Source of the DNA: an uncultured Collinsella sp.
GTDB lineage: Bacteria; Actinomycetota; Coriobacteriia; Coriobacteriales; Coriobacteriaceae
DNA length: 64,000 bases
Direction of reading: 5' to 3'
Assembly (NCBI GenBank): GCA_900544115.1
Contig: UQTW01000004.1
Coordinates: forward strand, 18,302 to 82,301
In this document: positions 2,433 through 47,520 of the stretch, piece after piece
How positions within the stretch are numbered: position 1 is the first letter of the stretch
Layout: each line of letters opens with the position of its first letter
Notes under the pieces: generated by a model
Seen by the model: the letters and a program-made list of their open reading frames with translations, nothing else
The model's database searches: none
What the model was told of the DNA's origin: nothing
Program-made: the position numbers and the translations under genes

Positions 2433-2461
2433 TGTGACAAAGGGACAGTCCCTTTGTCACA
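2433..2461. repeat. 29-bp perfect palindrome TGTGACAAAGGGACAGTCCCTTTGTCACA, copy 1 of 8
   Basis: Exact inverted repeat read directly from the sequence. It lies 36 bp after the guaA-subunit stop. Confidence 0.9.
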
Positions 2462-2478
2462 TCCTCGATATTATGTGA

Positions 2479-2520
2479 GGGATGGTACGCCACGCGGCGT
2501 GCCATCCCGTTCGTTATTTT
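2479..2520. terminator. Bidirectional intrinsic terminator: a GC hairpin plus T-run that forms the second half of an ~85-bp composite element
   Basis: Stem gggatggtacgcc/ggcgtgccatccc followed by gttcgttatttt. The stop of the convergent histidine-kinase gene (2514-2516) lies inside the T-run. Confidence 0.6.
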
Positions 2521-3662
2521 AATGAGCCGAGTGCGCGAGTGGGAAGGGTCACGAGCATGGTCGTTCCGCGCTCCGAGCTCTCTTCGACCTCGATGGAGCC
2601 GCCGTGGAGTGCGGCAATCTCCCAGACCAGTGCAAGCCCCAGCCCCACGCCGCCATATGCCCTGCTGCGCGATTTGTCGACGCGAAAGAAGGGCTGGAAG
2701 ATGCTCGTCTGGTATTGCTCGGGAATGCCCGGCCCCTGGTCGCGCACGCGTAGCAGCACGCGGTCGCCTTCGGCGCAGGCGTTGATTTGCACGGTCGAGT
2801 TGGGCGCGCTGTAACGTATGGCGTTTTCGGCCAAGTTGAACAGCAGCCGATAGATTAGCGTATCGCTGCCGATCGTTTGCGCGTCGCCCTCACTTGTAAG
2901 CGTGATGTCTTTTTGCTCGGCAAGGGGCGCCAGGTCCGTGAGTACTTCTTCGATCATCGGCGCCAGGTCAATCGCATCGTTGCAAGGGACACTGCGCAGC
3001 TCGCTCATCTCGAGCAGGGTCTTTGTCATGTGCGTCATCCGCTCGGTCTGCTCCTGCAGCAGCCCGAGCAGGCTCGCTGTATCGGCGTCGACGTCGGGGT
3101 GCTCGGCGCAAAACAGCTCAACCTGGGCCTGCATGAGCGCAAGTGGCGTGCGCAGCTCGTGCGCCGCATTGCCCGTAAACTGTCTTTGTGCGGAAAATCC
3201 CTCGTCAAGGCGGGCAATCATGTCGTTAAACGACGCGCTGCAGCGCCTGAGTTCAGAGGGCACGTCCTCGCTGATTTTTGTGTCGGCGAGGTTGTCGGGC
3301 CGCACGCTCTCGACTTGCGTCGCAAAGGAGCGCAACGGCTGCAACGCATGCCCGCTCACAAAGTAGGCCAGGACGCCTCCGAGCAGCGTCACCGCCGCAG
3401 TTATATACCAGCTCGTCGCGCCAAACGATTCTTGGGCGTCGTTCACGACGATGGTCAGCGCGTCGTCGAGCTCTTTGTTTGTCGGGTCAAATGAGCTGGG
3501 CGAGGCCGCCTCCACCTTGCTGTGCGCCGACGCTTCTGCACCAATCGAGTCCATGTAGCGCATGCCGGAGTAGCCAACCAGGCAATTCATAAGTACGCAG
3601 GTTGAACATATCAGCAGTGCCGTCATCAACGTGATGCGCCACTGCAGCGACAGCCGCTTCAT
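2514..3662 (-). CDS. Two-component sensor histidine kinase
   Basis: N-terminal transmembrane segments, H-box ...AHELRTPL..., HATPase motifs (DQGPGIP, GGVGLGLA). Confidence 0.85.
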   Translation of the reverse strand: MKRLSLQWRITLMTALLICSTCVLMNCLVGYSGMRYMDSIGAEASAHSKVEAASPSSFDPTNKELDDALTIVVNDAQESFGATSWYITAAVTLLGGVLAYFVSGHALQPLRSFATQVESVRPDNLADTKISEDVPSELRRCSASFNDMIARLDEGFSAQRQFTGNAAHELRTPLALMQAQVELFCAEHPDVDADTASLLGLLQEQTERMTHMTKTLLEMSELRSVPCNDAIDLAPMIEEVLTDLAPLAEQKDITLTSEGDAQTIGSDTLIYRLLFNLAENAIRYSAPNSTVQINACAEGDRVLLRVRDQGPGIPEQYQTSIFQPFFRVDKSRSRAYGGVGLGLALVWEIAALHGGSIEVEESSERGTTMLVTLPTRALGSLK

Positions 3663-4333
3663 TTGCCGTCCTCCATAACGTAGCCTTCGCCGATTCGGTT
3701 GCGGATGGGGTCGTGCCCCAACGCACCGCGCAGCTTTTTGCGCAGCGACGAGATATGCACGCGGGTCGCGTTGCTAAAGCTGTTGACGCTGCTGTCCCAT
3801 ACATGCTCGATAAGCTCTTCCTGGCTCACCGGCCGCCCCTGGTTAAGCATCAGGTATTCCAAGATGCCGGTCTCCTTGCGCGTGAGGGATAGGGTCTCGC
3901 CGCCCACGGAGGCGAGGCGCGCCTTGGTGTCAAAGCTCAACAATCCACAGACTAGAACAACGTCGTTTTGCGTAAAGCGCCTGAGCGTGAGACTGCGTAT
4001 ACGTGCCGCCAGCTCGTCAAGATGGAACGGCTTGGTGAGGTAGTCGTTGGCGCCCGCATCGAGCCCCGCTACCTTGTCGGAGACCTCGCCACGTGCCGAG
4101 AGCACAAGCACCTTGGTCTCACAATCAGTTGTCCTGAGTTGCCTGAGCACGGTCATGCCGTCGACATGGGGGAGATTGAGGTCGAGCACGACAAGATCAA
4201 AGGTCTCGACATCGAGCAGATCGAGGGCCTGCTGCCCGTCGTAGCAGCAGTCGACGCTATAGGCCAAGTTGCGCAGGCTGCGTGCGATCGCATCGCACAG
4301 CGCCCGCTCGTCCTCGATGACCAAGATGCGCAT
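3659..4333 (-). CDS. OmpR-family response regulator
   Basis: MRILVIEDERALCDAI... receiver domain with the phospho-acceptor D, and a C-terminal winged-helix. It overlaps the kinase gene by 4 bp, indicating an operon. Confidence 0.85.
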   Translation of the reverse strand: MRILVIEDERALCDAIARSLRNLAYSVDCCYDGQQALDLLDVETFDLVVLDLNLPHVDGMTVLRQLRTTDCETKVLVLSARGEVSDKVAGLDAGANDYLTKPFHLDELAARIRSLTLRRFTQNDVVLVCGLLSFDTKARLASVGGETLSLTRKETGILEYLMLNQGRPVSQEELIEHVWDSSVNSFSNATRVHISSLRKKLRGALGHDPIRNRIGEGYVMEDGK

Positions 4334-4483
4334 AACGTTCTCCTTGCATAATCATTCACGCTTAACACGGATTTTATAGTCGGTATGGTCCAATGGGTCG
4401 CGAAACGAAAGGAGTGGTCAGATTGTTCAAAGCGATTAAGCCTGTGGCGCAGGTGGCTTTGCTGATCGTTGGGGTAGCCATGG

Positions 4484-5473
4484 TTGGCTTTGGAATTATG
4501 CGCGGCGAGGCAGATGCCGTGCTGGCCAAGGCAATCAGGCTGTGCTTGGAGTGTATCGGAATTGGATAAAAGAAAAAACACTGCATCGCATCTTTTAGCG
4601 CGATTTCGTGGATTGATTCAGGCGGCGGCGACGCTTGCGACCAATATTCACCTGCCTAACTTTGCCAAGGGCGGCATCTACCAGGGAGCGGGCAAAGCCG
4701 TCTGCGTGCCGGGCCTCAACTGCTACTCGTGTCCAGCGGCCTCGGGTGCGTGCCCCATCGGGTCGTTTCAGTCGGTGGTGGGCTCGTCTAAGTTTAGCTT
4801 CTCGTATTACGTCACCGGAACGCTCATTCTGATCGGCGTGCTGCTGGGACGTTTTGTATGCGGCTTTTTGTGCCCGTTTGGATGGCTACAAGAGCTTTTG
4901 CATAAGATTCCCAGCAAAAAGCTCTCCACGAAAAAGCTCAAGCCGCTCACGTACATCAAGTATGCCGTGCTGCTGTTTGCCGTGGTGCTGCTGCCCGTCT
5001 TGGTGGTTAACGATGTGGGTATGGGCGACCCGTTCTTTTGCAAGTACATCTGCCCGCAAGGTGTGCTCGAGGGCGCGATTCCGCTGTCCATCATGAACGT
5101 GGGAATCCGCTCCGCGCTGGGAAAGCTCTTTTCCTGGAAGCTCGCGATCCTCATTGTGGTTGCGGTGCTGAGCGTGCTGTTCTATCGCCCCTTCTGCAAA
5201 TGGATTTGCCCCCTCGGCGCATTTTATGCGCTCATGAACAAGGTGTCTTTGCTGGGGATCCAGGTTGACCAGTGCAAATGCGTCTCGTGCGGCAAGTGCG
5301 CCAAGGTGTGTCAAATGGACGTGGACGTTACGCGTACGCCCGACCATGCCGAGTGCATTCGTTGCGGCAAATGCGTGGGCGCGTGCCCCGTCGATGCTAT
5401 TAGCTTTCGCTATGGGCTGGGTGTGACGGGCGACAAACCCGCGCAGTCCACGCAAGCCTGCGAAAACAAATAG
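4484..5473 (+). CDS. NapH/MauN-like polyferredoxin membrane protein with 4Fe-4S clusters
   Basis: Repeated CxxCxxCxxxCP motifs (CKYICPQG, CKWICPLG, CVSCGKCAKVC, CIRCGKCVGACP) plus transmembrane segments. The track start is a TTG, so the true start is probably further downstream. Confidence 0.6.
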   Translation: MALELCAARQMPCWPRQSGCAWSVSELDKRKNTASHLLARFRGLIQAAATLATNIHLPNFAKGGIYQGAGKAVCVPGLNCYSCPAASGACPIGSFQSVVGSSKFSFSYYVTGTLILIGVLLGRFVCGFLCPFGWLQELLHKIPSKKLSTKKLKPLTYIKYAVLLFAVVLLPVLVVNDVGMGDPFFCKYICPQGVLEGAIPLSIMNVGIRSALGKLFSWKLAILIVVAVLSVLFYRPFCKWICPLGAFYALMNKVSLLGIQVDQCKCVSCGKCAKVCQMDVDVTRTPDHAECIRCGKCVGACPVDAISFRYGLGVTGDKPAQSTQACENK

Positions 5474-5508: not shown

Positions 5509-6471
5509 ATGAAACTGTCAAAAATTGCAGCTCTGTTGATGCTGCCCGTGCTGGCGCTGACTCTCGCGGCGTGCTCTGCCCCCAAGGGCGACGCGAAGGG
5601 TGCTACGAGCGGCGATGCGCAGATTGCCGAGCTCATAGCGCAAAAGCCGTCGAGTGCCGAGGAGGCGGCCGAGCTGTACCAGCAGCTGCTGCAAAAGGAA
5701 AACGAGATCTTTGCGAGCGATAACGCCCTATGGGAAAAGGTGTTCCTTGCGGCCAACAAAGACACTCCCATGATTGAGGACGGCAAGAACTACGGTGACT
5801 TCTTGCTCGATACCATCGAGGGCGCCAAGGATCAGTTTGCGGCTGACGAGCTTAAGACGCTTAAGGCCGGCGCGCAGCAGGTCAAGGAGATCGAGGACAA
5901 GCTCATGGCGCTGGAGAAGGAGTTCCCCGGATGCGGCAGCACGCCCGGCGAGGGGGAGAGCGTCGATGCCTCGACCGCAGGCATGACTAACGGCGAGAGC
6001 GGGGAGACGAAGTTCCCCAGCTTTAAGGGCAAGGACTTGGACGGCAACGATGTAAACAGCGACGAGCTGTTCTCCAAGAACAAGGTCACCGTCATGAACT
6101 TCTGGTTTACCACCTGCAAGCCGTGCGTGGGAGAGCTGGGCGATCTGGAGAAGCTCAACAAGGAGCTTGCCGAGAAGGGCGGCCAGGTCGTGGGCGTTAA
6201 TTCCTTTACGCTCGATGGCAACAAAGACGAGGTGGCCGATGCCAAGGACGTGCTTTCCAAGAAGGGCGTGACGTATAAGAACATCTGGTTTAAGTCGGAC
6301 AGCGAGGCCGGAAAGTTCACCTCCAACCTGTACTCGTTCCCGACCACCTACGTGATCGACCAGAACGGTAACATTGTGGGAGAGCCGATCATGGGCGGCA
6401 TCAACTCCGCTGAGCAGCGCGAGGCGCTCAACAAACTGATCGATCAGGCACTCGCGAAGAGCGAACAGTAA
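5509..6471 (+). CDS. TlpA/ResA-like thioredoxin-fold lipoprotein (thiol:disulfide oxidoreductase)
   Basis: Lipoprotein signal MKLSKIAALLMLPVLALTLAAC, and a C-terminal redoxin fold with the active site WFTTCKPCVGE. Confidence 0.7.
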   Translation: MKLSKIAALLMLPVLALTLAACSAPKGDAKGATSGDAQIAELIAQKPSSAEEAAELYQQLLQKENEIFASDNALWEKVFLAANKDTPMIEDGKNYGDFLLDTIEGAKDQFAADELKTLKAGAQQVKEIEDKLMALEKEFPGCGSTPGEGESVDASTAGMTNGESGETKFPSFKGKDLDGNDVNSDELFSKNKVTVMNFWFTTCKPCVGELGDLEKLNKELAEKGGQVVGVNSFTLDGNKDEVADAKDVLSKKGVTYKNIWFKSDSEAGKFTSNLYSFPTTYVIDQNGNIVGEPIMGGINSAEQREALNKLIDQALAKSEQ

Positions 6472-8389: not shown

Positions 8390-8402
8390 CGCGCATTGGA
8401 AT

Positions 8403-8431
8403 GTGACAAAGTGACAGCCTCTTTGTCGCAT
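8403..8431. repeat. Degenerate copy of the 29-bp palindrome (tgtgacaaagtgacagcctctttgtcgca), copy 2
   Basis: Read directly from the sequence. It lies 14 bp after the cdr stop and carries the same downstream extension as copy 1. Confidence 0.8.
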
Positions 8432-8447
8432 CGGGGATGTTATATGC

Positions 8448-8488
8448 GGGATGGTGCGCCATGCGGCGTGCTGTCCCGTTCGTTTTTT
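8448..8488 (+). terminator. Intrinsic terminator, second half of the composite element
   Basis: gggatggtgcgcc/ggcgtgctgtccc pairs as plus-strand RNA once G:U wobbles are allowed, which amounts to compensatory change relative to copy 1. It is followed by ttttttgg. Confidence 0.6.
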
Positions 8489-8601
8489 GGCGCGGTTCGT
8501 TACATTCCTCACTGGTATCGGCCAAAAATGAGGATAGAGTAGGACAAACGCGCCGAACGTGAACGGCGGGGGAGCGGGCGAGCGCGCCCGCGCGAGAGAG
8601 G

Positions 8602-11600: not shown

Positions 11601-11865
11601 CAACGTGGCCAACGTGTTCAATGCCGAAACCTTTATCGAGGGTCTCATTGCCGGCGTCTTTGCCGTTACCGTCGTGGTGCTCGTAAGCTTTCCTGTTAAT
11701 GCTTGGGCGCTTGCTGCCAAGCAGGTCCCCAACCTGATGAGCCTGCCCGTGCAGGATGCGTTGATACTCATTGCGATATCGGTGCTGCTGACGGTCGTCG
11801 CCGGCCTACTGCCGGCCCGCAGCGCATCTAAGAAAGACCCCGTAGAAGCCCTACGCTCCGAATAA
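8602..11865 (+). CDS. Fused ABC transporter ATPase and FtsX-type permease with MacB-like architecture
   Basis: N-terminal Walker [10 protein letters not shown], signature LSGGQMQRV, and Walker B. There is one transmembrane segment, a large extracytoplasmic domain, and a C-terminal FtsX-like 3-TM bundle. Confidence 0.8.
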
Positions 11866-11894
11866 TGTGACAAAGGGACAGCCCCTTTGTCACA
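11866..11894. repeat. 29-bp palindrome copy 3 (tgtgacaaagggacagcccctttgtcaca)
   Basis: It directly abuts the TAA stop of the ABC gene (11863-11865). Confidence 0.9.
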
Positions 11895-11908
11895 TTTCTC
11901 TCCTGCGC

Positions 11909-13042
11909 CTAGCTTGTTTTGCCCATCAGCGTGATGCGGATGGCTGGATGGGTATACTCGTCAAACTCGTCCTCGGGTTCCGTATCAAACGAGTAATACG
12001 CTTTGACGGGGCCGTCGCTCGTCCTGATAGAGATTCTCTCGTAGAGCGAGCCGTTCAAAAAAGCCTGCCTAAACTCTTCAGGGAGCTTCTGCGGTGCTAG
12101 GAGCTCGGGACTTGCGGTCTTGACGTCTATGGTTTGGACGACAGAGGAAAGCTCGTCAAGGTCGAGCTCGATACGGGCGAGATTGTCCTCGAGGTTCGCA
12201 TCGGGGTCGACCTCTGCCGCGTAGCTCACTTCCGCGAGCGTTCCCTTGTTGTCAAAATCCAGGTACGTATAGGTCTTTTGGGCATCGGAGTCGCCGTCGT
12301 GCAGATAGCCTCGGACGTGATAGCCGTAATCTTGGTATCGCTCGTAGGGGTCATCGGCGGATACGTACTCGCATGAGGGTTCCAGCGCCTTGCGGGCGAT
12401 GGCGATCTGCTCGGCTGCAGCCGCGGCGTTCTCCTGCATCTCGATGTTTCCCTGCGCCAGCTGCGGGATATAGGCGCCGCACACGATTGCGAGGGGCAGC
12501 GCCACAAGCGCGACGATCCACTTTTTTGCACGGGGGATAGGCACGCCACAGGCCTCTGCCGCGGCCTTTGCGTTGGCGAAGCTCTCGGCAAGCACATCTG
12601 CCGCGGTGGCGACGGCGCCTACGGCAGCGGCGACCTCTGCCGCGCCGCCCAGGTTGCGCGCGGTCTCGTTGTCACTGTTCCTGAGCAGGCGCGCGGCGGC
12701 CTGCGTGCCAACAACGCCTGCGATCTGTGCCGAGCGGTCTTTCTCGCTCTGCTCGACGGCGAGCCGGTACTGCATTTCCTTCCACTGCTTGCCACGCATG
12801 CCAAAGCGCGGGGCGAGAGCGCAGTAGCAGAATATAACGAGCTCGATGGCGGTGAGCACCAAGGCGGTCATCATGCCTGTCTCTTGGAAGCCTTCGTGAT
12901 GGAAGACGATGTCGTCGACCATTTCGAAAGGAATGATCGATAAGGGCAGCACGAATGCCATGGCAAGCGCCGCGCCGGCAACCTTGGGGCAGATGCAGTA
13001 TCGCTGGATGCGCTTGCGTTCTTGTTCGGAGAGTGCTGCCAT
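11909..13042 (-). CDS. Hypothetical membrane-anchored protein
   Basis: Two or three transmembrane segments plus an Ala-rich and acidic extracytoplasmic region. No recognisable domain. It is flanked by palindrome copies 3 and 4. Confidence 0.45.
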   Translation of the reverse strand: MAALSEQERKRIQRYCICPKVAGAALAMAFVLPLSIIPFEMVDDIVFHHEGFQETGMMTALVLTAIELVIFCYCALAPRFGMRGKQWKEMQYRLAVEQSEKDRSAQIAGVVGTQAAARLLRNSDNETARNLGGAAEVAAAVGAVATAADVLAESFANAKAAAEACGVPIPRAKKWIVALVALPLAIVCGAYIPQLAQGNIEMQENAAAAAEQIAIARKALEPSCEYVSADDPYERYQDYGYHVRGYLHDGDSDAQKTYTYLDFDNKGTLAEVSYAAEVDPDANLEDNLARIELDLDELSSVVQTIDVKTASPELLAPQKLPEEFRQAFLNGSLYERISIRTSDGPVKAYYSFDTEPEDEFDEYTHPAIRITLMGKTS

Positions 13043-13250
13043 GGCGGGTCCTTGGTGTCGTGGCGGTCGTTGTGGCGCGATGCCGTCATATGTGACTCAG
13101 TATAGAGAATCCCGCCATCGATGAGCGCATGGTCATACGGCAAAAGTGCCACGGCAGCCCTGGTTTAGAGCGGCTGCTCCTGTGCCCACGCGATGATGCC
13201 GCCCGATACGTATGTGTGCCAAAATAAACAGCCGAATGATGATTTGCAAA

Positions 13251-13279
13251 TGTGACAAAGGGACAGTCCCTTTGTCACA
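13251..13279. repeat. 29-bp palindrome copy 4 (exact)
   Basis: It sits in the 5' region 16 bp upstream of dus and is followed by the conserved gatgtgag motif. Confidence 0.9.
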
Positions 13280-13294
13280 TTGATGTGAGAATGG

Positions 13295-27708: not shown

Positions 27709-28089
27709 CTACTGCATGGTCTCGGGGGCTACAAGGTCGAGCATCTCGTGCAATTTGTCGCGCGTGACGCCCAGGGTTTCGGCCTGCGTAGCGGCCTGCG
27801 CAAGCAACTCTTCGATATGGCAGAGCTGGTTTTCGCGCAAGAGTTCCTGGTTTCCCTCGGCGACAAAGCAGCCCTTGCCCTGCACGGTGCAGATAAAACC
27901 GAGTTGCTCCAGGTCGGCATAGGCGCGCTTGGTGGTGATGACGCTCACGCCCAGGTCGCTCGCCAGCGCGCGGATACTGGGGAGCTTGGCTCCCGCAGCG
28001 AGTGAGCCCGAAAGGATCTGGGCTTTGACCTGCGAGGTTATCTGCTCGTAGATGGGCTTGTCGCTCGAATTGGATAGGATGATGTCCAC
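27709..28089 (-). CDS. GntR-family (YtrA-like) transcriptional regulator
   Basis: 126 aa. The N-terminal wHTH ...PSIRALASDLGVSVITTKRAYADLE... is typical of short YtrA-type GntR regulators that control adjacent ABC operons. Confidence 0.8.
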   Translation of the reverse strand: MDIILSNSSDKPIYEQITSQVKAQILSGSLAAGAKLPSIRALASDLGVSVITTKRAYADLEQLGFICTVQGKGCFVAEGNQELLRENQLCHIEELLAQAATQAETLGVTRDKLHEMLDLVAPETMQ

Positions 28090-28116
28090 AGCGGCTCCTT
28101 AGCTGTTGGGCTACAC

Positions 28117-28160
28117 GTGTATATAACCGGTAAGCACAGTATATATACACTATGCACAGT
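28117..28160. promoter_or_regulatory. Inverted repeat GTGTATATA-N16-TATATACAC with flanking gcacagt direct repeats, in the GntR promoter region
   Basis: Read directly from the sequence: it includes a TATATA -10-like core 28 bp upstream of the GntR start. It is a candidate promoter/operator. Confidence 0.4.
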
Positions 28161-28200
28161 TGCGCAAGAGGGAAATATGGGCTCGTCTGTCCCTCCGTTC

Positions 28201-28513
28201 GTTTATCTCGATCCGTAACATCTGAAGTCAATTTTGGCGGCTAGATGTTACAGATCGAGACAGCCTCGATCTTCCTGCTGGTTTATCTCAATCTGTAACA
28301 CTTAGGCCTGATTTTGATGGCTAGATGTTACAGATTGAGACATTGGCTGCCCGCCTGCCAGTTTGTCTCGATCTGTAACAGGTAGAGGCTCAAAACCCGT
28401 CTTTCTGTTACAGATTGAGACGGAGATTGAGACGGTGTTGGTCTTCCCAACCGTTTATCTCGATCTGTAACATCTGGAGCCGATTTTGGCGGCTAGATGT
28501 TACAGATTGAGAC
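28201..28513. repeat. Tandem array of four 61-bp hairpin units at 80-bp period. CRISPR-like layout but not a CRISPR.
   Basis: Units at 28201-28261, 28281-28341, 28361-28421 and 28453-28513. Each is GTTTATCTCGATCTGTAACA-(25 nt)-TGTTACAGATTGAGAC with 16-bp inverted arms. Spacers are 19, 19 and 31 bp. Confidence 0.85.
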
Positions 28514-28623: not shown

Positions 28624-30264
<1,641 letters not shown>

Positions 30265-39673: not shown

Positions 39674-39917
39674 GGTAAAACGCGTCGTTGTGGGACTCGC
39701 ATTGTTACCGCCCCAGATGAACCCGGGCAGACAAAAAGGGGAGGTGCCGGCTTTCGCAAGGCGCGAACCTACGAAAATCGCCGCGCGGCAACGCGGGGCG
39801 ATGAGCTCGGTCGGGGGATAGGGCCCGCTTCGCCCGCCGGCCCGTAAATTGTATCATCCAGTGTGGAACGAGAGCGCCCGTTGCCGCGTGCGATGGGCTT
39901 GCAATAAGAGGAGAGCC

Positions 39918-41921
39918 ATGTCGAAGCAAGCGGTCGTTGGAATCTTGGCGCATGTCGATGCCGGCAAGACCACGCTGGCCGAGGCCATGTTGTTCAACGC
40001 GGGTCGCATTCGCAAGCGCGGCCGCGTGGACGATGGCGATTCGCATCTGGACACTAACACGATCGAGCGCGAGCGCGGCATTACGATCTTCTCGTCGCAG
40101 GCCGTGCTCGACCATGGCGATACCCACGTCATGCTCGTTGATGCGCCGGGGCATGTCGATTTTTCTGCCGAGGCGGAGCGCACATTGCGCGCACTCGACT
40201 ACGCGATTTTGGTTGTGGGCGCCAACGACGGCGTACAAGGGCACACCGAAACCCTGTGGCGCCTGCTTGCGCGCTATGACATTCCGACGTTCATCTATAT
40301 CAACAAAATCGATTTGGAGAATCCCGGCCGCGATGTTTTGCTGGCACAACTTGGGCAACGTCTTTCCGAAGGTTGCCTGGATGCCAACGAACTGTTGGCG
40401 GGCGGCGCCGTTCAGGAGGACGCTGCTGCGTTGGACGAGGCGGCGCTCGAGGAGTTTCTTGAGGCGGGCGAACTTTCTGTTGCAACGCTGTCACGCATGG
40501 TTGCCGAGCGCAAGCTCTTTCCCTGCTTTGCCGGCTCGGCGCTCAAGGACCAAGGCGTGGACGAGCTGCTGGACGGCATATGCGCGCTGATGCGTGAACG
40601 GGCATGGCTTCCGGAGTTTGCCGCGCGCGTCTATCGTGTCAGCCGCGGGGATCGTGGCGAGCGCTTGGCTTGGGTTAAAGTGACCGGCGGCACGCTGCGT
40701 GCCAAGCAGATGATTAACGGACGTTCCGGCGCCGAGGCATGGGAGCAAAAGATCGACCAGGTGCGCATCTATAACGGCGAGAAATACGAGCTTGCCCAGG
40801 AAGTTGCCGCTGGCGGCATCTGCACCGTGACGGGTCTTGCGCACGTTCGCCCGGGTGATGCCCTGGGCGCGGAGCCCGCGGGCGATACGCCCGTCATTGC
40901 GCCGGTCCTCACCTATACGGTGCTTCCGGGCGAACACGATGTCCACGCGGTGTTCAAAGCGCTGACTGAGTTGGCGGACGAAGATCCCATGCTCGGCGTA
41001 AGCTGGAATACGCATCTTGAACAAATACATCTGCAGCTCATGGGAGCGGTGCAACTCGAGGTCGTGCAGCGGGTGTTGGCCGATCGTTTTGGCCTTGCGG
41101 TCGAGTTTGAGCCCGGCGGCATCCTCTATAAGGAGACCATTTCGCAGCCGGTCGAGGGCGTGGGTCACTTTGAGCCACTGCGCCACTATGCCGAGGTGCA
41201 TCTGCGCCTGGAGCCGTTGCCGGCGGGCTCGGGCGTACAGTTTGGCACCGTGACCTCGACCGACGAGCTCGATCTTAACTGGCAGCGTCTGGCGCTCACC
41301 AACGCCATGGAGCGCGATCATCTGGGCGTGCTGACCGGCTCGCCCATCACCGATGTGTGCATTACGCTCACAGGTGGCCGCGCGCATGCCAAACACACCG
41401 AGGGCGGCGATTTTCGCCAGGCCACGTATCGCGCGATTCGCCAGGGGCTCATGCGGGCACGTGAGGCCGGCGCGGCGGTGCTGTTGGAGCCGTGGTACCA
41501 CTTTGAGCTCGAGGTGCCGGGGGAGTGCGTGGGCCGGGCGCTCTCGGATGCCACGCGCATGGGTGCCGAGTACGAGCCGCCGACGATGGCGGGCGACCGA
41601 GCGAAGCTTGTGGGTCGCGTGCCGGCATCCGAGGTGCAGGATTACGCGCTGGAGGTGGCTGCCTACACGAGTGGTCGCGGGCATCTGTACCTGGAGTTTG
41701 CCGGCTATGCGCCTTGTCATGATGCCGAGCGCGTCATCGAGGCGGTGGCCTATGAGCCCGAGGCCGATCTGCCCAACACGCCCGACTCGGTCTTTTGCTC
41801 TCACGGCGCCGGTTACACGGTCAAATGGTACGACGTACCCGCCGCGGCACACGTAAAGATCGATCCCGCCGCCTTCCGTCCCTGGCGAGCAGCAGACGCT
41901 GAGTTTTTCGGCCACATGTGA
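39918..41921 (+). CDS. Ribosomal-protection-type translational GTPase (TetM/TetO/TetW/OtrA family)
   Basis: AVVGILAHVDAGKTTLAEAML, DAPGHVDF, NKIDL. The domain IV/V region ...LPAGSGVQFGTVTS... aligns with Tet(W)/Tet(M) and is divergent from canonical EF-G. RBS aagaggagag precedes the ATG at 39918. Confidence 0.65.
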   Translation: MSKQAVVGILAHVDAGKTTLAEAMLFNAGRIRKRGRVDDGDSHLDTNTIERERGITIFSSQAVLDHGDTHVMLVDAPGHVDFSAEAERTLRALDYAILVVGANDGVQGHTETLWRLLARYDIPTFIYINKIDLENPGRDVLLAQLGQRLSEGCLDANELLAGGAVQEDAAALDEAALEEFLEAGELSVATLSRMVAERKLFPCFAGSALKDQGVDELLDGICALMRERAWLPEFAARVYRVSRGDRGERLAWVKVTGGTLRAKQMINGRSGAEAWEQKIDQVRIYNGEKYELAQEVAAGGICTVTGLAHVRPGDALGAEPAGDTPVIAPVLTYTVLPGEHDVHAVFKALTELADEDPMLGVSWNTHLEQIHLQLMGAVQLEVVQRVLADRFGLAVEFEPGGILYKETISQPVEGVGHFEPLRHYAEVHLRLEPLPAGSGVQFGTVTSTDELDLNWQRLALTNAMERDHLGVLTGSPITDVCITLTGGRAHAKHTEGGDFRQATYRAIRQGLMRAREAGAAVLLEPWYHFELEVPGECVGRALSDATRMGAEYEPPTMAGDRAKLVGRVPASEVQDYALEVAAYTSGRGHLYLEFAGYAPCHDAERVIEAVAYEPEADLPNTPDSVFCSHGAGYTVKWYDVPAAAHVKIDPAAFRPWRAADAEFFGHM

Positions 41922-41945
41922 CAAGGGGACAGCCCCTTTGTCACC
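41917..41945. repeat. 29-bp palindrome copy 5 (tgtgacaaggggacagcccctttgtcacc)
   Basis: The TGA stop of the preceding gene (41919-41921) is the TGA inside the palindrome. Confidence 0.85.
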
Positions 41946-42014
41946 CGCTGTTGGTATAACTCGGTGTAAGTTGGTATAACTATAGGCAGGGTTTGCCAAT
42001 CCGAGGAGGCCGAC

Positions 42015-43133
42015 ATGAATCCAAATCCCTTTAAGCCAACGGCAGGCAAGCGGCCTCCGATACTCATCGGTCGCGAGTCGGTCATCGAAGATTTCGAGGA
42101 AGGGCTCGATAACGGCGCCGGAGCGCCGGGTAGGCTCATGCTCATTACGGGAAACCGCGGCTGCGGCAAGACGGTTCTCCTGCGGGAGCTGCAACGTCTA
42201 GCCAATGAGCGTGGATGGGCGGTTGTCTCCGATTCCGCTTCGCTTGGCCTATGCGACCGCTTGGCCGATGCGCTTCGCTCGAATAGGCCGGTTGTGACGT
42301 CAATGGAGTTCGGTCCGTCGTTTGGCCGGATGTCGGTCGAGGCGGCGCGAGCAAAGGGCGAGACGTTGCGAGGGCTGGTCAACGAGCGCCTCAAGAAACT
42401 CGGGCCGGGAAAGGGCTTGCTGTTTGCGATTGATGAGGCCCAATCTGCGTCTATCGAGGAACTGGCGGCGCTGGCCGTTCTCTATCAGCAAGTGCTCGGA
42501 GATCAAGATGCTACAGGCTTGTCCGATAGCGACCAGCGCGGTCTTGCGCTGGTGTTCGCCGGCTTACCCAGTATGGTTGATGACTTGCTCGAAGAGCCGA
42601 GCGTGACGTTTTTGCGGCGTGCTCAGCAGCGTACGCTGGGGGCGATTTCTTTGCCCAAAGTGCGCGATTCGTATATCCAGACGGTCAAAGACGCTGGTCT
42701 TTACGTTGATGCGGAGACGGCGGACCTTGCGGCGCGCAAGAGCATGGGGCATCCCTATATGGTTCAGCTGGTGGGCTATTACATGTGGCGGTCTGCTGTC
42801 CGGCGTGGCTCGCAGGTCATTGAAGAGCGCGATGTTGAGGCTGGGCACGCGGATGCCGTCTCCGAGTTCTACGAAGCGGTTGACGCGCCCCTGTATTACG
42901 GGCTGCGCAGTCCACAGCGCCTATTTATCGAGGCCATGGCAGTTGACGGGGGCAAGCCGACGCGCATGGCGGACATCATTGAGCGCTGCGACCGCACCCA
43001 AAGCTGGGCGAGTAAATATCGCGCAAGCCTGATTCGCGAGCGCGTCATCGAGGCTGCCGGATACGGCCTCGTCCGGTTTACCGTGCCCATGCTGGGCGAG
43101 TACATCCGCGAACGCGTTTTATGGCACGAGTAA
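42015..43133 (+). CDS. AAA+ ATPase (Arch_ATPase/AAA_16-like) with a C-terminal winged-helix, paralog A
   Basis: NPF...IGRE motif, Walker A GNRGCGKT, Walker B LLFAIDEAQ. It shares VTFLRRAQQ, LVGY and a C-terminal region with 46271-47371. Confidence 0.65.
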   Translation: MNPNPFKPTAGKRPPILIGRESVIEDFEEGLDNGAGAPGRLMLITGNRGCGKTVLLRELQRLANERGWAVVSDSASLGLCDRLADALRSNRPVVTSMEFGPSFGRMSVEAARAKGETLRGLVNERLKKLGPGKGLLFAIDEAQSASIEELAALAVLYQQVLGDQDATGLSDSDQRGLALVFAGLPSMVDDLLEEPSVTFLRRAQQRTLGAISLPKVRDSYIQTVKDAGLYVDAETADLAARKSMGHPYMVQLVGYYMWRSAVRRGSQVIEERDVEAGHADAVSEFYEAVDAPLYYGLRSPQRLFIEAMAVDGGKPTRMADIIERCDRTQSWASKYRASLIRERVIEAAGYGLVRFTVPMLGEYIRERVLWHE

Positions 43134-43161
43134 TGTGAAGAGGGACGGTCCCTTTGTCACA
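43134..43161. repeat. Palindrome copy 6, degenerate (tgtgaagagggacggtccctttgtcaca)
   Basis: It abuts the TAA stop at 43131-43133 and is followed by gatagatgtgagg, just upstream of the GNAT start. Confidence 0.8.
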
Positions 43162-43183
43162 TCGATAGATGTGAGGTCAAAAC

Positions 43184-43738
43184 ATGGTGATTCAAACTGA
43201 GCGATTGACGCTTCGTCCGTGGCGCGAGACGGATGCGGCGATCCTGTTTACATATGCGAGCGACCCGGACGTGGGACCGGCTGCGGGCTGGCCGCCCCAT
43301 CGAAGCATTGAGGAGAGCAGGGAGATCATTCGGACAGTTTTTGCGGCACCCCATACCTTTGCCGTTTGCCTGGCTGCGACGGATGAGCCCGTGGGTAGCA
43401 TCGGTCTCATGCCGTCTCGCTGCGAGTCAAACCGTCGAGATGACGGTCTCGAACTCGAAGTGGGCTATTGGATCGCCAAGCCATTCTGGGGCCGAGGCTT
43501 TGCTCCCGAAGCGGTACGAGCCATGCAGCGCTATGCGTTCGAAACGCTTGGCTGCAAGGCGCTTTGGTGCGGATACTACGAGGGCAATAACAAGTCATTA
43601 CGCGTTCAGCAAAAGTGCGGGTTCGCGCCGCATCACGTTGAGCGCGACGTGCCCTGCGAGCTTATGGGCGATGTACGTACCGAGTACTTTACGTATTTGA
43701 CCCGCGAAGACTGGCGCGGGCGGGCAGAAGGGGAGTGA
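43184..43738 (+). CDS. GNAT-family N-acetyltransferase (RimJ/RimL-like)
   Basis: MVIQTERLTLRPWRETDAA... and ...WGRGFAPEAVRAMQRYAFE. Its stop overlaps the start of the next gene. Confidence 0.7.
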   Translation: MVIQTERLTLRPWRETDAAILFTYASDPDVGPAAGWPPHRSIEESREIIRTVFAAPHTFAVCLAATDEPVGSIGLMPSRCESNRRDDGLELEVGYWIAKPFWGRGFAPEAVRAMQRYAFETLGCKALWCGYYEGNNKSLRVQQKCGFAPHHVERDVPCELMGDVRTEYFTYLTREDWRGRAEGE

Positions 43739-46230
43739 TGACGGTGTCGCAACAACCAAGTGCTATCGAGGTGCGTGGCGCGCGCGTCCATAACCTCAAG
43801 GACATCGATATCGATATTCCGCTGGGAAAACTCGTAGGTATTGCCGGCGTGTCGGGTTCGGGCAAGAGTTCGCTGGCGTTGGGAGTTCTTTATGCCGAGG
43901 GCTCGCGCCGCTATCTGGAGGCGCTCAGCACCTATACCCGCCGTCGTCTGACGCAGGCCGAGCACGCCCAGGTGGACGAGGTGCTGCACGTGCCGGCGGC
44001 GCTCGCATTGCATCAGCGTCCGAGCGTGCCGGGCGTGCGTTCCACCTTTGGCACCATGACCGAGCTCAACAATAGCCTGCGCTTGCTTTTTAGTCGCTGT
44101 GCCCATCACGTGTGCCCGCATTGCGGGGCGCGCGTGGAGCCGAGCCTTAACGTGGCTGCGGGCCTGTCGCTCACGTGTCCGACATGCGGCCGCGAGTTCT
44201 ACGCGCCGAGTGCCGAGGATTTGGCTTTCAATAGCGGCGGCGCGTGTCCTACCTGCGGCGGCACCGGTGTCATGCGCGAAGTGGACGAGGCGAGTCTGGT
44301 GCCCGACGAGTCAAAGACTATCAACGAGGGCGCGGTGCTTCCTTGGGGCACGCTCATGTGGGATTTGATGAAGCAGGTGGCAGGCGAGATGGGCGTGCGC
44401 ACCGATGTGCCGTTTAGCCAGCTCACGCCTCAAGAGCGCGATATCGTGTTCCACGGCCCGGCGGTTAAGAAGCACATTCTCTACGTTCCCAAAAACGGCG
44501 AGGGCGCCACGCCGCTCGACTTTACCTATTACAACGCCGTCTATACCGTTGAGAATGCGCTCGCCAAGGTTAAGGACGATAAGGGGCTTAAGCGTGTGGC
44601 TCGCTTTTTGCGCGAGGGACCATGCCGTGACTGCGCCGGCACGCGTCTCTCCGAGGCTGCGCGCCAGCCCCAGGTGCGCGGTATCAATCTGGCTCAGGCC
44701 GCGGCCATGACGCTTGGTGATGCGATCGAGTGGGTGCGCGGGGTGCCCGCATCCTTGCCGGCCGAGATGCGGCCCATGGCGACGGATATCTGCGATTCGT
44801 TTTTGAGCACGGCTCGTCGTCTGGTCGACCTGGGTCTCGATTACCTTTCGCTCGATCGCGCCGGTGCCACGCTCTCCACGGGTGAGCGCCAGCGCGTGCA
44901 ACTCGCCCGCGTGGTGCGCAACCGATCGACAGGCGTGCTCTATGTGCTGGACGAGCCCTCAATTGGCTTGCATCCTGCCAATGTCGACGGCTTGGTGGGC
45001 GTAATGCGCGACCTGGTGGATGACGGCAATACCGTGGTTGTTGTCGACCACGATACACGTGTGCTGGTGGAGGCTGATTATCTGGTCGAGATGGGCCCCG
45101 TTGCCGGAGCAGGCGGCGGCAGTGTAATCGCCGCGGGCACGGTGGACGAGGTCGAGCAATCGCAGGACAGCCGTATCGCGCCGTTTTTGCGCGCCGAGCC
45201 CAAGCGCTTGCGTCCGCAGGTGACTGACGACGAAATGTTCGACCAGGGCCATATCCGCATGGCGACCGATACCATCCATACCGTCAAGCCGCTCGAAGTC
45301 GATATTCCGCGCGGTCGCTTGGTCGCGGTTACGGGTGTTTCGGGTTCGGGCAAGACGACGTTGGTGCTCGAGACGCTCATCCCGGCGCTTAAGGCGCAGG
45401 CAGCTGACGAGCGCTTGCCGGGGCACGTGTGTTGGGTCGATGCCGAGGGCATTGGCCGCGCAAACCTGATTGACGCCACGCCCATCGGTGCCAACGTGCG
45501 CTCGACGGTAGCGACTTATGCCGACATCCATGATGAGCTGCGCCGCGCCTTCGCCCGCACGCCCGAGGCAAAGGCAGCCGGCTACAAGGCGGGTGCCTTT
45601 AGCTACAATACCGGCGCCTTGCGCTGCCCTACGTGTGATGGCACGGGCTCGATATCGCTCGACGTGCAGTTTTTGCCCGATGTCGAAATCGTCTGCCCGG
45701 CATGTCGCGGCTCACGTTATGCAGACGCGGCTTCGCATATCCATCGCGAGGGCAAGGACGGGAGTCTGCTTACGTTGCCGCAGCTCATGGACATGAGTGT
45801 GGACGAGGCCATCGACGCCACGGTGGGGCTCAAGAAAGTTCAGACGCGCTTGCAGACCTTGCACGACCTTGGCTTGGGCTATCTTACGCTCGGTGAGCCC
45901 ACACCGGCGCTTTCGGGCGGCGAGGCGCAGCGCCTTAAGCTCGCGAGCGAGATGGGCCGCGTGCAGGATGATGCCGTATTCGTATTTGACGAGCCCACGA
46001 TCGGCCTGCATCCGCTCGATGTTCAGGTGCTGTTGAACGTGTTTGACGGCCTCGTTGCCAAGGGCGCCACGGTTATCGTGATCGAGCACGACCTCGACCT
46101 TATCTGTAACGCCGATTACGTGATCGACATGGGCCCGGGCGGTGGTGATGCGGGCGGGCAAATCGTCTGCGCCGGCACGCCAGGCGACATCGCAGCCTGC
46201 TCCGCAAGCATCACCGGCCGCTACCTATAG
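43735..46230 (+). CDS. Short UvrA-like ABC ATPase (UvrA2 paralog), 831 aa
   Basis: Two ABC modules (GVSGSGKSS, GVSGSGKTT) with zinc-finger Cys clusters. It is about 110 aa shorter than canonical UvrA, consistent with loss of the UvrB-binding and insertion domains. Confidence 0.75.
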   Translation: MMTVSQQPSAIEVRGARVHNLKDIDIDIPLGKLVGIAGVSGSGKSSLALGVLYAEGSRRYLEALSTYTRRRLTQAEHAQVDEVLHVPAALALHQRPSVPGVRSTFGTMTELNNSLRLLFSRCAHHVCPHCGARVEPSLNVAAGLSLTCPTCGREFYAPSAEDLAFNSGGACPTCGGTGVMREVDEASLVPDESKTINEGAVLPWGTLMWDLMKQVAGEMGVRTDVPFSQLTPQERDIVFHGPAVKKHILYVPKNGEGATPLDFTYYNAVYTVENALAKVKDDKGLKRVARFLREGPCRDCAGTRLSEAARQPQVRGINLAQAAAMTLGDAIEWVRGVPASLPAEMRPMATDICDSFLSTARRLVDLGLDYLSLDRAGATLSTGERQRVQLARVVRNRSTGVLYVLDEPSIGLHPANVDGLVGVMRDLVDDGNTVVVVDHDTRVLVEADYLVEMGPVAGAGGGSVIAAGTVDEVEQSQDSRIAPFLRAEPKRLRPQVTDDEMFDQGHIRMATDTIHTVKPLEVDIPRGRLVAVTGVSGSGKTTLVLETLIPALKAQAADERLPGHVCWVDAEGIGRANLIDATPIGANVRSTVATYADIHDELRRAFARTPEAKAAGYKAGAFSYNTGALRCPTCDGTGSISLDVQFLPDVEIVCPACRGSRYADAASHIHREGKDGSLLTLPQLMDMSVDEAIDATVGLKKVQTRLQTLHDLGLGYLTLGEPTPALSGGEAQRLKLASEMGRVQDDAVFVFDEPTIGLHPLDVQVLLNVFDGLVAKGATVIVIEHDLDLICNADYVIDMGPGGGDAGGQIVCAGTPGDIAACSASITGRYL

Positions 46231-46234
46231 GCGA

Positions 46235-46263
46235 TGTGACAAAGGGACTGCCCCTTTGTCACA
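46235..46263. repeat. 29-bp palindrome copy 7 (tgtgacaaagggactgcccctttgtcaca)
   Basis: It lies 4 bp after the UvrA-like stop. Confidence 0.9.
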
Positions 46264-46270
46264 TTGACTT

Positions 46271-47371
46271 CTATTTCACGCATTGAGCGGCGAGATAGTC
46301 GCGGAAGAATGGCAATTCAAAAGCGACGATTCCGCGCCCACGTTCCCCAATGATGCCGGCGTCTATCATGCGGCGTCGGTAGCGGGAGACCTGCTGCGGC
46401 GAACGCTTAAGGCGCTCGACAAGGTCGGCGGTGGTGGACTCTTCCTCGTCATCGAGCATGGCGATGAGGAATCGCTTGTCTTCTGCAGTGAGTTCCCGAT
46501 AGGTTGCCGCGAGAATTCGGTCGTCCATCTCGTCGCGCGCGATTTTGATTCCCAGGTCAAAGTCGCGTGACGAGATTTCCTTCGAATCGCTTGTGAGATC
46601 CCAGGCACGGTAGCCTACGAGTTGCAATAGGAAGGGAAAACCAGAGATCGAGCGAACGGCTCTATCGATTCCCTCAGCATCTGCCAGGCGATCGTTTTCC
46701 TGAATTGTGCGAATCAAGGCTTCGCGCACGTCATAGTCGGCAATGCGACCCAGATGATATTGTTGGGCGCGGCGAAGAAACGAGACCGTCTTGTGGTTTA
46801 GTAGCGTCGATACGTTGTTGGGAAGTCCCGCCATGAGCAGGGCGACGCGTTTTCCATCGGTCACAAAGTGCTGATACGACGCTGCGAGCTGAATCATCTC
46901 GTCGAGTGTCGGGTCCACCTCGTCAACCGTAACGAGCAGACCGGTGCCAGCCTCGTTGAGCTGGTCGATGATGTCGCTCATGCGATAACGCCAGGTTGAG
47001 GCATCGTGAACGCGATTGACCTCGATGCTGCCGAGCGGTGCAATTCCGAGACCGGTGACTTCGAAGTTGTTAGACGGGTCGATAAGATGGCCGGCAGCAC
47101 GTTTCGCCCCGAACTCGATTTCCTCAAGCATTCCCGGGAGCGCGGTTGTCTTTACGGCAATCCAGCCGTGGGATTCCGCCCTTGTCGCGAGCGACGACAT
47201 GAGAGCGGTTTTACCGGTTCCACGTGCGCCTGAGAAGATCGAGGTCAATTCTGGGCGCCTGCGCTGGCTCAAGAAGGCACGGTCCAAATCCCGAATAATC
47301 TGTTGTCTGCCAGCGAGATGGGCAGGAACCTCGCCAAAGCTAGGGGTAAACGGGTTCTCGAGATATTCCAC
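46271..47371 (-). CDS. AAA+ ATPase (Arch_ATPase/AAA_16-like), paralog B
   Basis: NPF motif, Walker A GARGTGKT, Walker B LLVTVDEVD, VSFLRRAQQ. It is a paralog of 42015-43133. Confidence 0.65.
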   Translation of the reverse strand: MEYLENPFTPSFGEVPAHLAGRQQIIRDLDRAFLSQRRRPELTSIFSGARGTGKTALMSSLATRAESHGWIAVKTTALPGMLEEIEFGAKRAAGHLIDPSNNFEVTGLGIAPLGSIEVNRVHDASTWRYRMSDIIDQLNEAGTGLLVTVDEVDPTLDEMIQLAASYQHFVTDGKRVALLMAGLPNNVSTLLNHKTVSFLRRAQQYHLGRIADYDVREALIRTIQENDRLADAEGIDRAVRSISGFPFLLQLVGYRAWDLTSDSKEISSRDFDLGIKIARDEMDDRILAATYRELTAEDKRFLIAMLDDEEESTTADLVERLKRSPQQVSRYRRRMIDAGIIGERGRGIVAFELPFFRDYLAAQCVK

Positions 47372-47491
47372 AAAGCTCTCCTTTCACAGCGCCGTTTAAC
47401 TTCATTTTACTTTAGTTAATTCTGATTAAAAGTGAGGGCTTTTTATCTAGAGCATCAATTAGGCGTGTGCGCCATCGGCGCGGCGCTTGAA

Positions 47492-47520
47492 TGTGACAAA
47501 GGGACAGTTCCTTTGTCACA
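47492..47520. repeat. 29-bp palindrome copy 8 (tgtgacaaagggacagttcctttgtcaca)
   Basis: The trmL stop codon (reverse complement of 47516-47518) is the TGA inside the palindrome's right arm. Confidence 0.9.

Follow-up and report, generated by a model that had tools for sequence, protein, structure and literature searches.

A dispersed palindromic repeat with likeness to REP and NIME elements lies at gene ends and at junctions of gene content in Collinsella

Here we describe a family of palindromes, named PAL, which occurs in eight copies in a 64,000-nt stretch of DNA from an uncultured Collinsella sp. (contig UQTW01000004.1, positions 18,302 to 82,301; the window in the following) and recurs at the borders of variable gene content in related genomes. 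We favour, with a probability of roughly 55%, a REP-like or NIME-like repeat that would form a 3' hairpin in mRNA, would be homogenised by a copying process or by a hairpin-binding factor and would serve as a crossover point for gene cassettes. The REP-like part of this reading is based on the dispersed occurrence of an extragenic hairpin at gene ends, on the covariation of its stem, on its fixed inner sequence and on the existence of lineage dialects. The likeness is one of resemblance only. Judged by its sequence, PAL is not a member of the REP, NIME/dRS3, attC or Xer families, and it appears to be undescribed so far.

A search of the window with up to three mismatches yielded six sites, and an arm-based search, with two 12-nt arms around a variable centre and no more than five mismatches, retrieved all eight, starting at 2433, 8402, 11866, 13251, 41917, 43134, 46235 and 47492. 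Dinucleotide-preserving shuffles give a chance expectation of 0.00 copies, and a reversed-sequence control over ~0.9 Mb returned 0 matches. A preliminary description of this DNA had reported a perfect 29-bp palindrome present eight times. Eight related copies are indeed there, but the exact 29-mer occurs only at 2433 and 13251; four further copies carry 1-3 mismatches and two are degenerate (Table 1). Moreover, the second copy starts at 8402 instead of 8403, and the conserved unit is longer than 29 bp: an A on the left side (8/8 window copies) and a T on the right side (7/8) lengthen the palindrome to 31 nt (A-TGTGAC...GTCACA-T). Family members measure 31-35 nt, are near-perfect and follow the consensus rAA-TGTGACAAAGGGAC-N-GTCCCTTTGTCACA-TTy. 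Other statements of the description hold. All window copies are extragenic save for overlaps of 3-5 nt with stop codons, the TAA codons of two open reading frames (ORFs; ABC/FtsX and AAA ATPase) directly abut the repeat, and the TGA codons of the EF-G-like and the SpoU ORF fall into its left and right arm, respectively. Its author did not recognise the palindrome as a described element, and nor did we. Rfam gives no match in the window at gathering thresholds and no overlap with any PAL even at E <= 5. The sequence was not found in the literature searched, where the only two texts containing the 12-mer arm were unrelated studies of eukaryotic cell biology, and a survey of structured RNAs from the gut that names Collinsella does not describe it.

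The pattern GACAAAGGG-N5-CCCTTTGTC was scanned against 185,579 species-representative genomes. The element is by no means confined to the window, as at least 119 stretches with PAL were obtained. Among the matches listed, almost all derive from Collinsella, the other hosts being Olsenella, Tractidigestivibacter, Paratractidigestivibacter, Atopobiaceae and one metagenome-assembled genome of the Coriobacteriaceae. We counted 158 copies in 856 kb of these scan loci and 181 in 1.23 Mb around the Dus gene, which follows copy 4 of the window. Two scan matches labelled Acutalibacteraceae and Ruminococcus show 60-62% G+C, one of them with flanks that are also present at Collinsella sites, and look mis-binned. 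The genes of the window itself are 90-100% identical to human-gut Collinsella contigs. A phage origin of PAL was rejected, since the viral contigs contained a single match.

Isolated 12-nt arms outside full palindromes do not occur in 2.17 Mb. Hence the unit is the whole palindrome, and a single motif in the manner of DNA uptake sequences is ruled out. A broader search for the core CAAAGGG-N5-CCCTTTG with up to one mismatch added only four variants, so that few copies in the DNA examined should have escaped the arm-based census. We also set aside an origin- or terminus-specific site (parS- or matS-like), as GC skew is positive throughout the window and the copies are scattered over many contigs. 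In 11 Atopobiaceae and RUG11916 loci the arms read TGAGAC...GTCTCA at 15 sites, compared to TGTGAC...GTCACA in Collinsella. This difference between Atopobiaceae and Collinsella is a lineage dialect. The suggestion of a species-specific REP- or MITE-like family (MITE, miniature inverted-repeat transposable element) thus stands with regard to dispersal, extragenic location, hairpin and 3'-end bias, but not with regard to species specificity, because PAL spans Collinsella and several genera of Atopobiaceae. The same 23-nt core, GACAAAGGGACAGTCCCTTTGTC, was also encountered in the unrelated Firmicute Dethiothermospora halolimnae (31% G+C; comparison locus L027, 3289-3317; comparison loci are labelled L plus a number), where it is part of a longer perfect palindrome (cctgg...ccagg). 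This match may be a coincidence, because by our own estimate ~17 chance matches are expected for the scan pattern.

As RNA, each copy is predicted to fold into a hairpin with a stem of 13-15 bp and a loop of 3-5 nt (-21 to -25 kcal/mol, z-scores of -3 to -7 versus shuffles). Copy 1 and its downstream terminator fold jointly at -53.4 kcal/mol. The base-frequency table of the aligned copies contains no T-run following the PAL hairpin. Covariation was evaluated on 80 distinct copies with 6 nt of flank. Standard pairs fill 87% of the pair cells, and 57 double-sided changes are observed versus 31.7 in column shuffles, a value that is reached by none of 500 shuffles and lies above every slid control. 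The covariation is concentrated at stem positions 1-5 and at the loop-closing pair 13/17. Position 3 is found as UA (50), AU (11), CG (4) or GC (3), positions 1, 2 and 5 covary too, and the loop is closed by AU (37), GC (4) or GU (18). Compensated variants are also present at orthologous sites (e.g. TCCGAC/GTCGGA versus TCTGAC/GTCAGA), and paired changes of the outer arms include TATGA/TCATA, TGCGA/TCGCA and TGAGA/TCTCA. Essentially no change is seen in the inner stem CAAAGGG and in the loop framework R-C-N-G-Y, a fixity owing in part to ascertainment as the scan pattern demanded a 9+9 core. On the sense strand of tandem contexts, G-U pairs exceed A-C mismatches by 15 versus 7 independent events, and by 11 versus 1 in the outer stem, a part free of ascertainment; this hints at pairing in the transcript. 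The centre nucleotide was considered as an orientation marker for recombination and discarded; it varies freely among orthologous copies and is uninformative.

The position relative to genes was derived from a crude ORF caller applied to the 119 scan loci and the window. Before de-duplication, 85 copies are in tandem, 32 in convergent and 12 in divergent context, 25 are labelled intragenic and 12 lie at a locus edge. Some of the intragenic labels are errors of the ORF caller, including the one for window copy 47492. Distances to 3' ends fall within -5 to +14 nt of a stop codon in 100 of 149 cases and peak at -5 (TGA in the arm), 0 and +4. Collapsing orthologous sites leaves 30 tandem, 15 convergent and 7 divergent sites. 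Among the tandem ones, 24 are closer to the upstream stop and 11 closer to the downstream start (p = 0.04), the latter class being swollen by over-extended ORF starts. The bias towards gene 3' ends is hence present, if smaller after de-duplication. Within the window, seven of the eight copies adjoin at least one gene 3' end; the exception is 13251, located 15 nt ahead of the Dus start codon. Upstream of Dus the palindrome is found at a distance of 16-25 nt in all metagenome loci that reach this region (79/79), and the ABC gene, where detected, usually has the palindrome at +4, with two loci that differ. The neighbour genes of PAL copies show no common functional theme.

Canonical terminators start 15-17 nt after the copies at 2433 and 8402. 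At these two sites PAL is therefore not the terminator. Palindrome and terminator constitute a module common to copy 1 and 8401-8488, with 83% identity over 88 nt. To this module also belongs the motif gatgtgag at 2433 and 8402, which the preliminary description took as conserved behind the copies at 13251 and 43134; it follows only few copies and is not enriched among 152 non-redundant flanks.

What that description missed is the role of PAL as a junction of gene content. Flank clustering gave 101 flank families, 13 of them with two or more partners across the palindrome, and in pairwise alignments the homology ends at the palindrome edge. At three independent loci the same site is occupied either by one palindrome or by a palindrome-cassette-palindrome arrangement. 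One of them lies in the window, in the order ABC gene, palindrome 11866, 377-aa gene, palindrome 13251 and Dus. The corresponding empty site with a single palindrome between ABC and Dus is present in L118 (Collinsella sp. BG-O-102), L124, L137, L142, L161, L182, L191 and L196. A metagenome search with Dus yielded 80 loci, and the ABC|Dus junction displays at least eight different fillings, every one of them bounded by palindromes. Non-coding fillings form arrays upstream of Dus with 155, 285 or 368 nt between two PAL copies. Others carry the 377-aa gene or an allele of 60% identity, or a unit of flavodoxin, aldo-keto reductase and LysR genes, and the large ones comprise segments of 4.4-6.8 kb, one with an agmatine-deiminase-type operon. 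The second pair of empty and occupied sites is L072 versus L036 with a filling of 405 nt, the third L035 versus L005 with a filling of 1,016 nt including a NUDIX gene. In both cases the BLAST segments overlap exactly on the palindrome. No recombinase or transposase domain was detected in the annotated cassette genes, and no cassette was found inverted between palindromes or relative to Dus.

For 47 long loci we defined a boundary as the edge between aligned DNA and at least 200 nt of unaligned DNA. Positions within 10 nt of a palindrome make up 0.65% of this sequence and hold 123 of 990 distinct boundary positions or 2,195 of 7,073 pairwise observations (31%). Conversely, a boundary coincides with 109 of 128 palindromes in one or more of the pairwise comparisons. 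Among intergenic spacers, 97 of the 106 that include a palindrome contain a boundary, versus 192 of the 582 that lack one (odds ratio 22), the median lengths being similar. Further events are seen in the window. The segment consisting of copy 6 and the GNAT gene is lacking in five related genomes, in which the ATPase gene is directly followed by the UvrA-like gene; it was therefore either inserted in the lineage of the window or deleted in the five relatives. In the spacer behind the CoA-disulfide-reductase-like (CoADR) ORF, the right homology junction to a palindrome-less allele falls into the 3' half of the terminator 8446-8489 rather than into PAL. Hence, not every indel here is palindrome-bounded. 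Truncated copies (one arm, or arm plus loop) stand beside a full copy in L045 (1368-1387), L081 (~6420-6445), L165 (~4240-4260) and L053 (~5120-5137). Sometimes they belong to a different dialect, e.g. TGCGACAAAGG followed by a TGTGAC copy. Imprecise events at the palindrome seem to have left them behind as scars.

Among known elements, REP/BIME sequences of Escherichia, Salmonella and Pseudomonas share several traits with PAL. They are short (20-40 nt) extragenic palindromes in many dispersed copies, located at gene ends or between the genes of operons, often no more than ~15 nt from a stop codon, they form a stable hairpin without U-tract, and they occur in mosaics with other repeat motifs. 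REP elements are also known as join-points of rearrangements and as targets of insertion sequence (IS) elements. In contrast to REP/BIME, PAL is a near-perfect palindrome with a 3-nt loop. It has no GTAG/GTGG head, and its foot reads rAA-TGTGAC with positions 2-4 varying freely under compensation. Unlike in REPINs and BIMEs, the copies are single, the closest pairs being 155-400 nt apart and bracketing unrelated segments. Moreover, one PAL sequence extends over two bacterial families with a change of dialect, whereas REPs are usually species-specific. To our knowledge, REP/RAYT systems have not been described in Actinomycetota.

The dRS3/NIME arrays of Neisseria are similar in another respect. 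A short inverted-repeat unit brackets variable segments, including non-coding ones of tens to hundreds of bases, the arrays occupy syntenic positions with contents that differ between strains, and recombination end-points lie in or next to them. They have been proposed to promote the exchange of adjacent genes, either via homologous recombination or via a specific recombinase, and according to the FAM18 paper NIME arrays were not observed outside Neisseria (PMC1797815). The sequences are unrelated, however, dRS3 being ATTCCC-N8-GGGAAT (PMC1797815) and PAL a full palindrome of 29-35 nt. In addition, the segments bracketed by PAL are usually whole genes or operons, the host is not known as naturally transformable, and we saw no recombinase of phage or of IS110 type that targets the site. 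The likeness to NIMEs is thus functional and does not imply membership.

Gene modules bounded by inverted-repeat sites of ~28 bp and devoid of a recombinase of their own are also known as pdif/dif modules from Acinetobacter plasmids, where they are shuffled between replicons (PMC6449649, PMC7399989). The pdif site is asymmetric (XerC arm, 6-nt spacer, XerD arm; 11-6-11) and alternates in orientation, whereas PAL is symmetric (14-1-14 with a 1-nt centre), bears no similarity to the consensus of the Xer arms and is chromosomal, at the ends of ordinary housekeeping genes. Integron attC sites resemble PAL in being palindromes, imperfect to perfect, that sit right behind the stop codon of a cassette ORF or overlap with it, with one site per cassette, and their recombination is thought to involve the folded hairpin. 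Yet PAL displays neither R''/L''/L'/R' boxes nor a GTTRRRY core, extrahelical bases or bulges. It is dispersed over the chromosome instead of being assembled on one platform, and its sequence is conserved, not only its structure. We found no intI, attI or Pc near PAL, and no integrase domain in the part of the genes around the window copies that was annotated or in the cassettes.

In our preferred reading of a REP- or NIME-like repeat, PAL would be transcribed as the tail of the upstream mRNA, where the 3' hairpin may act as a barrier to exonucleases or modulate termination or translation at the stop codon. It would not be an efficient intrinsic terminator, since a U-tract is lacking, a real terminator follows two window copies and PAL resides 16-25 nt ahead of Dus. 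The fixed inner stem and loop as well as the dialects might go back to the copying of a master sequence or to a trans-acting protein that recognises the hairpin. With about 30 identical bases at many gene ends, crossover points for the gain and loss of genes would be at hand. A cassette between two copies could be excised or deleted with one copy remaining, and a resident copy could receive a cassette that bears one. No more than homologous or slippage-type recombination would be needed for this, and a dedicated enzyme is possible.

Several points weigh against this reading. The RNA-level role is one that we infer from sequence, and the compensatory changes could also arise by template-switch repair within a DNA palindrome, without any selection on RNA. 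The strand comparison of G-U and A-C is not significant overall (15 versus 7) and is reversed in the inner stem/core (4 versus 6). The 3'-end bias shrinks on de-duplication (p = 0.04) and depends on a crude ORF caller. The boundary statistics stem largely from one region that was picked because it is variable, and the orthologous loci are not independent, which inflates the respective p-values. Some indels, namely those at CoADR and GNAT, have their other end at a position without palindrome, hence the palindrome is not the sole breakpoint. PAL shows neither a GTAG head nor REPIN doublets, and no RAYT gene (Y1 transposase, PF01797-type) flanked by it was found in the 2.17 Mb searched. Finally, REPs are not usually conserved as one sequence in two bacterial families, and this conservation points to a specific partner protein.

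The main alternative, which we regard as possible but clearly less probable, takes PAL as the core at which a dedicated site-specific recombination system would insert and excise gene cassettes, in the style of attC, Xer/pdif or the hypothesised dRS3 recombinase, with the recombinase encoded elsewhere in the genome. The contrast of one copy at the empty site and two copies around the cassette at three independent loci, the cassette arrays, some with 155, 285 or 368 nt of non-coding DNA from one palindrome to the next, and the stop codons inside or against the site, as in attC, are all in its favour. Size and symmetry (~13-bp arms, short centre) recall the core site of a tyrosine recombinase, and the dialects, along with the constancy of inner stem and loop, suggest a protein that evolves together with the site. 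On the other hand, no integrase or recombinase gene was found in or beside the cassettes or in the annotated part of the window, and there is no likeness to the R/L boxes of attC or to the XerC/XerD arms. The site is symmetric, yet none of the cassettes turned out to be inverted. Moreover, several indels have only one end at the palindrome, truncated copies beside full ones look like the outcome of imprecise rather than conservative events, and the 3'-end bias (15 convergent versus 7 divergent sites) is not expected for orientation-blind borders. Equally tentative is the broader assumption that gut Coriobacteriia possess a cassette-exchange system of the chromosome which has not been described before, with PAL as its recombination site and a trans-encoded enzyme that would recognise the hairpin by its fixed inner stem and C-N-G loop. 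Cassettes would then be excised as circles and integrated at any resident copy, the ordinary gene ends of the chromosome serving accessory genes as docking points. If true, a dispersed integron-like or NIME-like mechanism would exist outside Proteobacteria.

The hairpin could also be taken as a bidirectional intrinsic terminator of the U-tract-less type proposed for Actinobacteria that was copied together with genes, so that the link to breakpoints would merely reflect operon ends. A stable G+C-containing hairpin directly after stop codons, 7-10 nt from both stops when between convergent genes, would fit, and by its symmetry it would act on both strands. We consider this rather doubtful, for compared to a canonical intrinsic terminator the hairpin is present but the U-tract absent, and the organism does use canonical terminators, two of them directly downstream of copies 1 and 2. 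A copy furthermore precedes Dus in 79/79 loci and lies 4 nt after the ABC gene in empty-site genomes, a spacing which leaves no room for a promoter and thus requires read-through. For termination the structure would suffice and a fixed 23-nt sequence across families would not be needed, and boundaries are far commoner in palindrome spacers than in other spacers of similar length. Terminal inverted repeats of a non-autonomous unit (a MITE or a composite PAL-gene-PAL), with a transposase acting in trans and a short target duplication, are an unlikely explanation. A case in its favour is a PAL-ATPase-PAL unit in L005 (see below), the dialects would fit an amplification from a master copy, and two composite modules, PAL with a terminator (88 nt) and PAL with a long hairpin of ~190 nt, recur at different sites. 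This case is however the only one of its kind and equally well explained by a deletion at 5-nt microhomology, most empty sites retain one palindrome unlike in transposon excision or insertion, and single copies are not surrounded by a consistent target duplication. By tblastn with an IS200 TnpA sequence, 2.17 Mb yielded one IS200-like gene (L093 6126-6563) and one fragment (L071 54-224), neither of them flanked by the palindrome. The gene, the sole IS200/IS605-type Y1 transposase gene found, shows 54% identity to the TnpA query and has its own subterminal hairpins. Least probable by far, and rejected with regard to CRP/FNR, is a regulatory role in which PAL would be bound by a dimeric transcription factor, from the CRP/FNR or another family, that controls a regulon. 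The preliminary description had offered a regulon-wide operator as one of two options and had likened the outer TGTGA...TCACA pentamers to CRP/FNR-family half-sites. Copies 13251 and 43134 do lie just upstream of start codons and a palindrome is always upstream of Dus. However, with CRP/FNR operators (TGTGA-N6-TCACA) PAL shares only these pentamers; its half-sites are 19 nt apart, not 6, and no other part of PAL is as variable as the pentamer, whose covariation with its partner fits a stem rather than a protein contact. By location, gene 3' ends and convergent contexts prevail over promoter regions, the neighbours of the copies lack a functional theme, and single half-sites are absent from 2.17 Mb.

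Few genera of the human gut are as rich in species and as variable between strains as Collinsella, and the turnover of its gene content is poorly understood. PAL at the borders of accessory genes offers a testable handle on this turnover and predicts where accessory genes are located. If a dedicated enzyme exists, cassette-type exchange as in integrons, dif modules and NIMEs would extend to Actinomycetota; if not, PAL would be a clean case of a REP-like repeat shaping a pangenome. PAL sites may also be natural landing sites for genetic tools in an organism which is hard to engineer. For annotation it matters that the stop codons of several genes fall inside the repeat, and hairpins so near to stop codons may tune expression.

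Table 1. PAL copies and associated features of the window
Feature	Coordinates	Strand	Description
PAL copy 1	2432..2462		Perfect 29-mer at 2433-2461; convergent genes on both sides: GMP-synthase C-terminal-part ORF (1417-2397, +) 35 nt before, stop of histidine kinase ORF (2514-3662, -) 52 nt away
Canonical intrinsic-terminator-like hairpin	2479..2520	+	13-bp stem, 4-nt loop, T-rich tail; 17 nt past copy 1; second-ranked terminator-like site
PAL copy 2	8401..8431		Degenerate, 4 substitutions; 12 nt past CoA-disulfide-reductase-like ORF (6698-8389, +); ABC/FtsX ORF 171 nt on
Canonical terminator-like hairpin	8446..8489	+	15 pairs, T-run; downstream of copy 2
PAL copy 3	11865..11895		1 mismatch; abuts TAA of ABC/FtsX ORF (8602-11865, +); 14 nt to stop of 377-aa ORF (11909-13042, -); left cassette border
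Variable cassette	11895..13250	-	One gene (11909-13042), 377 aa (independent gene call agrees), no Pfam hit, membrane-protein-like N-terminus
PAL copy 4	13250..13280		Perfect; divergent context; Dus start codon (13295) 15 nt downstream, start of 377-aa gene 208 nt off; right cassette border
PAL copy 5	41916..41946		3 mismatches; left-arm TGA is stop of EF-G-like ORF (39849-41921, +); AAA ATPase ORF 69 nt on
PAL copy 6	43133..43162		Left arm degenerate (1-nt deletion plus substitutions), right arm perfect; abuts TAA of AAA_16 ATPase ORF (42015-43133, +); GNAT ORF 22 nt on
Copy 6 and GNAT acetyltransferase gene (43184-43738)	43134..43738	+	Absent from five related genomes
PAL copy 7	46234..46264		1-2 mismatches, depending on strand; convergent genes: UvrA-like ORF (43735-46230, +) 4 nt before, stop of AAA ATPase/winged-helix-turn-helix (wHTH) ORF (46271-47371, -) 7 nt away
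PAL copy 8	47491..47521		1 mismatch; right-arm TGA (minus strand) is stop of SpoU methylase ORF (47516-48328, -); 120 nt upstream of ATPase start (47371); in L008 another neighbour follows the corresponding palindrome

A second repeat was noticed in the comparison loci. It is a hairpin element of ~190 nt with arms of 64-68 nt (L039 4778-4963, L113 672-853, L045 1133-1320 and many of L121-L200), several loci having more than one copy. Nearly always it is 9-18 nt or ~95-100 nt away from PAL, and the window has no copy of it. Possibly it is a MITE, either carried along with PAL or targeting it.

P-loop ATPase genes bracketed by two PAL copies each are found at 42015-43133 (+) and 46271-47371 (-) of the window and at 1376-2758 of L003. 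Both window ATPases have AAA_16/AAA_22 domains and are paralogous, and one of them bears a winged helix at its C-terminus. The L003 protein is of the AAA_14+DUF4143 type, which is palindrome-flanked in L003 and L005. Such ATPases may be over-represented among single-gene cassettes, the sample being small. A mobile unit associated with the ATPase was considered, as three palindrome pairs of the window each flank one gene of ~370 aa, and was rejected because the 377-aa protein is unrelated to both ATPases. Neither is a link to AAA+/wHTH ATPases a general rule, for across the 119 loci these two ATPases appear only at orthologous positions. In L005 (3019-4640) the PAL-DUF4143/AAA_14 ATPase-PAL unit has the 5-nt direct repeat GAGCG on both sides. 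At the matching spot L035 (2420-2445) contains one GAGCG and no palindrome. The repeat would be either a target-site duplication or the trace of a microhomology deletion.

Further elements of the window are of other kinds. An ABC ATPase gene (26804-28231, -) and prfC/RF3 (28624-30264, +) diverge from a spacer in which a long inverted repeat, TTTATCTCGATCTGTAACA ... TGTTACAGATCGAGAC, makes up each of four units (80-92 nt) arranged in tandem at 28172-28513. These units are unrelated to PAL in sequence. At 57009-57116, just past a patatin-like gene, two 46-nt copies of 87% identity, each with an internal palindrome GGAAAGCGCGTCCCAGAATG...CTGGGATGCGGTTTCC, lie at the 5' end of an ORF without Pfam hit (57026-58255, +). 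The GMP synthase gene at 1417-2397 (+) encodes the PP-loop ATP-pyrophosphatase and C-terminal dimerisation parts only (326 aa), without a glutamine amidotransferase domain, which suggests a split guaA. A full-length match to the thiamine pyrophosphate (TPP) riboswitch at 59089-59199 (-) scores 51.4 bits versus a gathering score of 54.3 (E = 3.8e-07). It is probably genuine, as it is located directly upstream of a hydroxyethylthiazole kinase gene (58198-59136, -). In that case the listed ORF start (59136) overlaps the riboswitch and is likely too far upstream.

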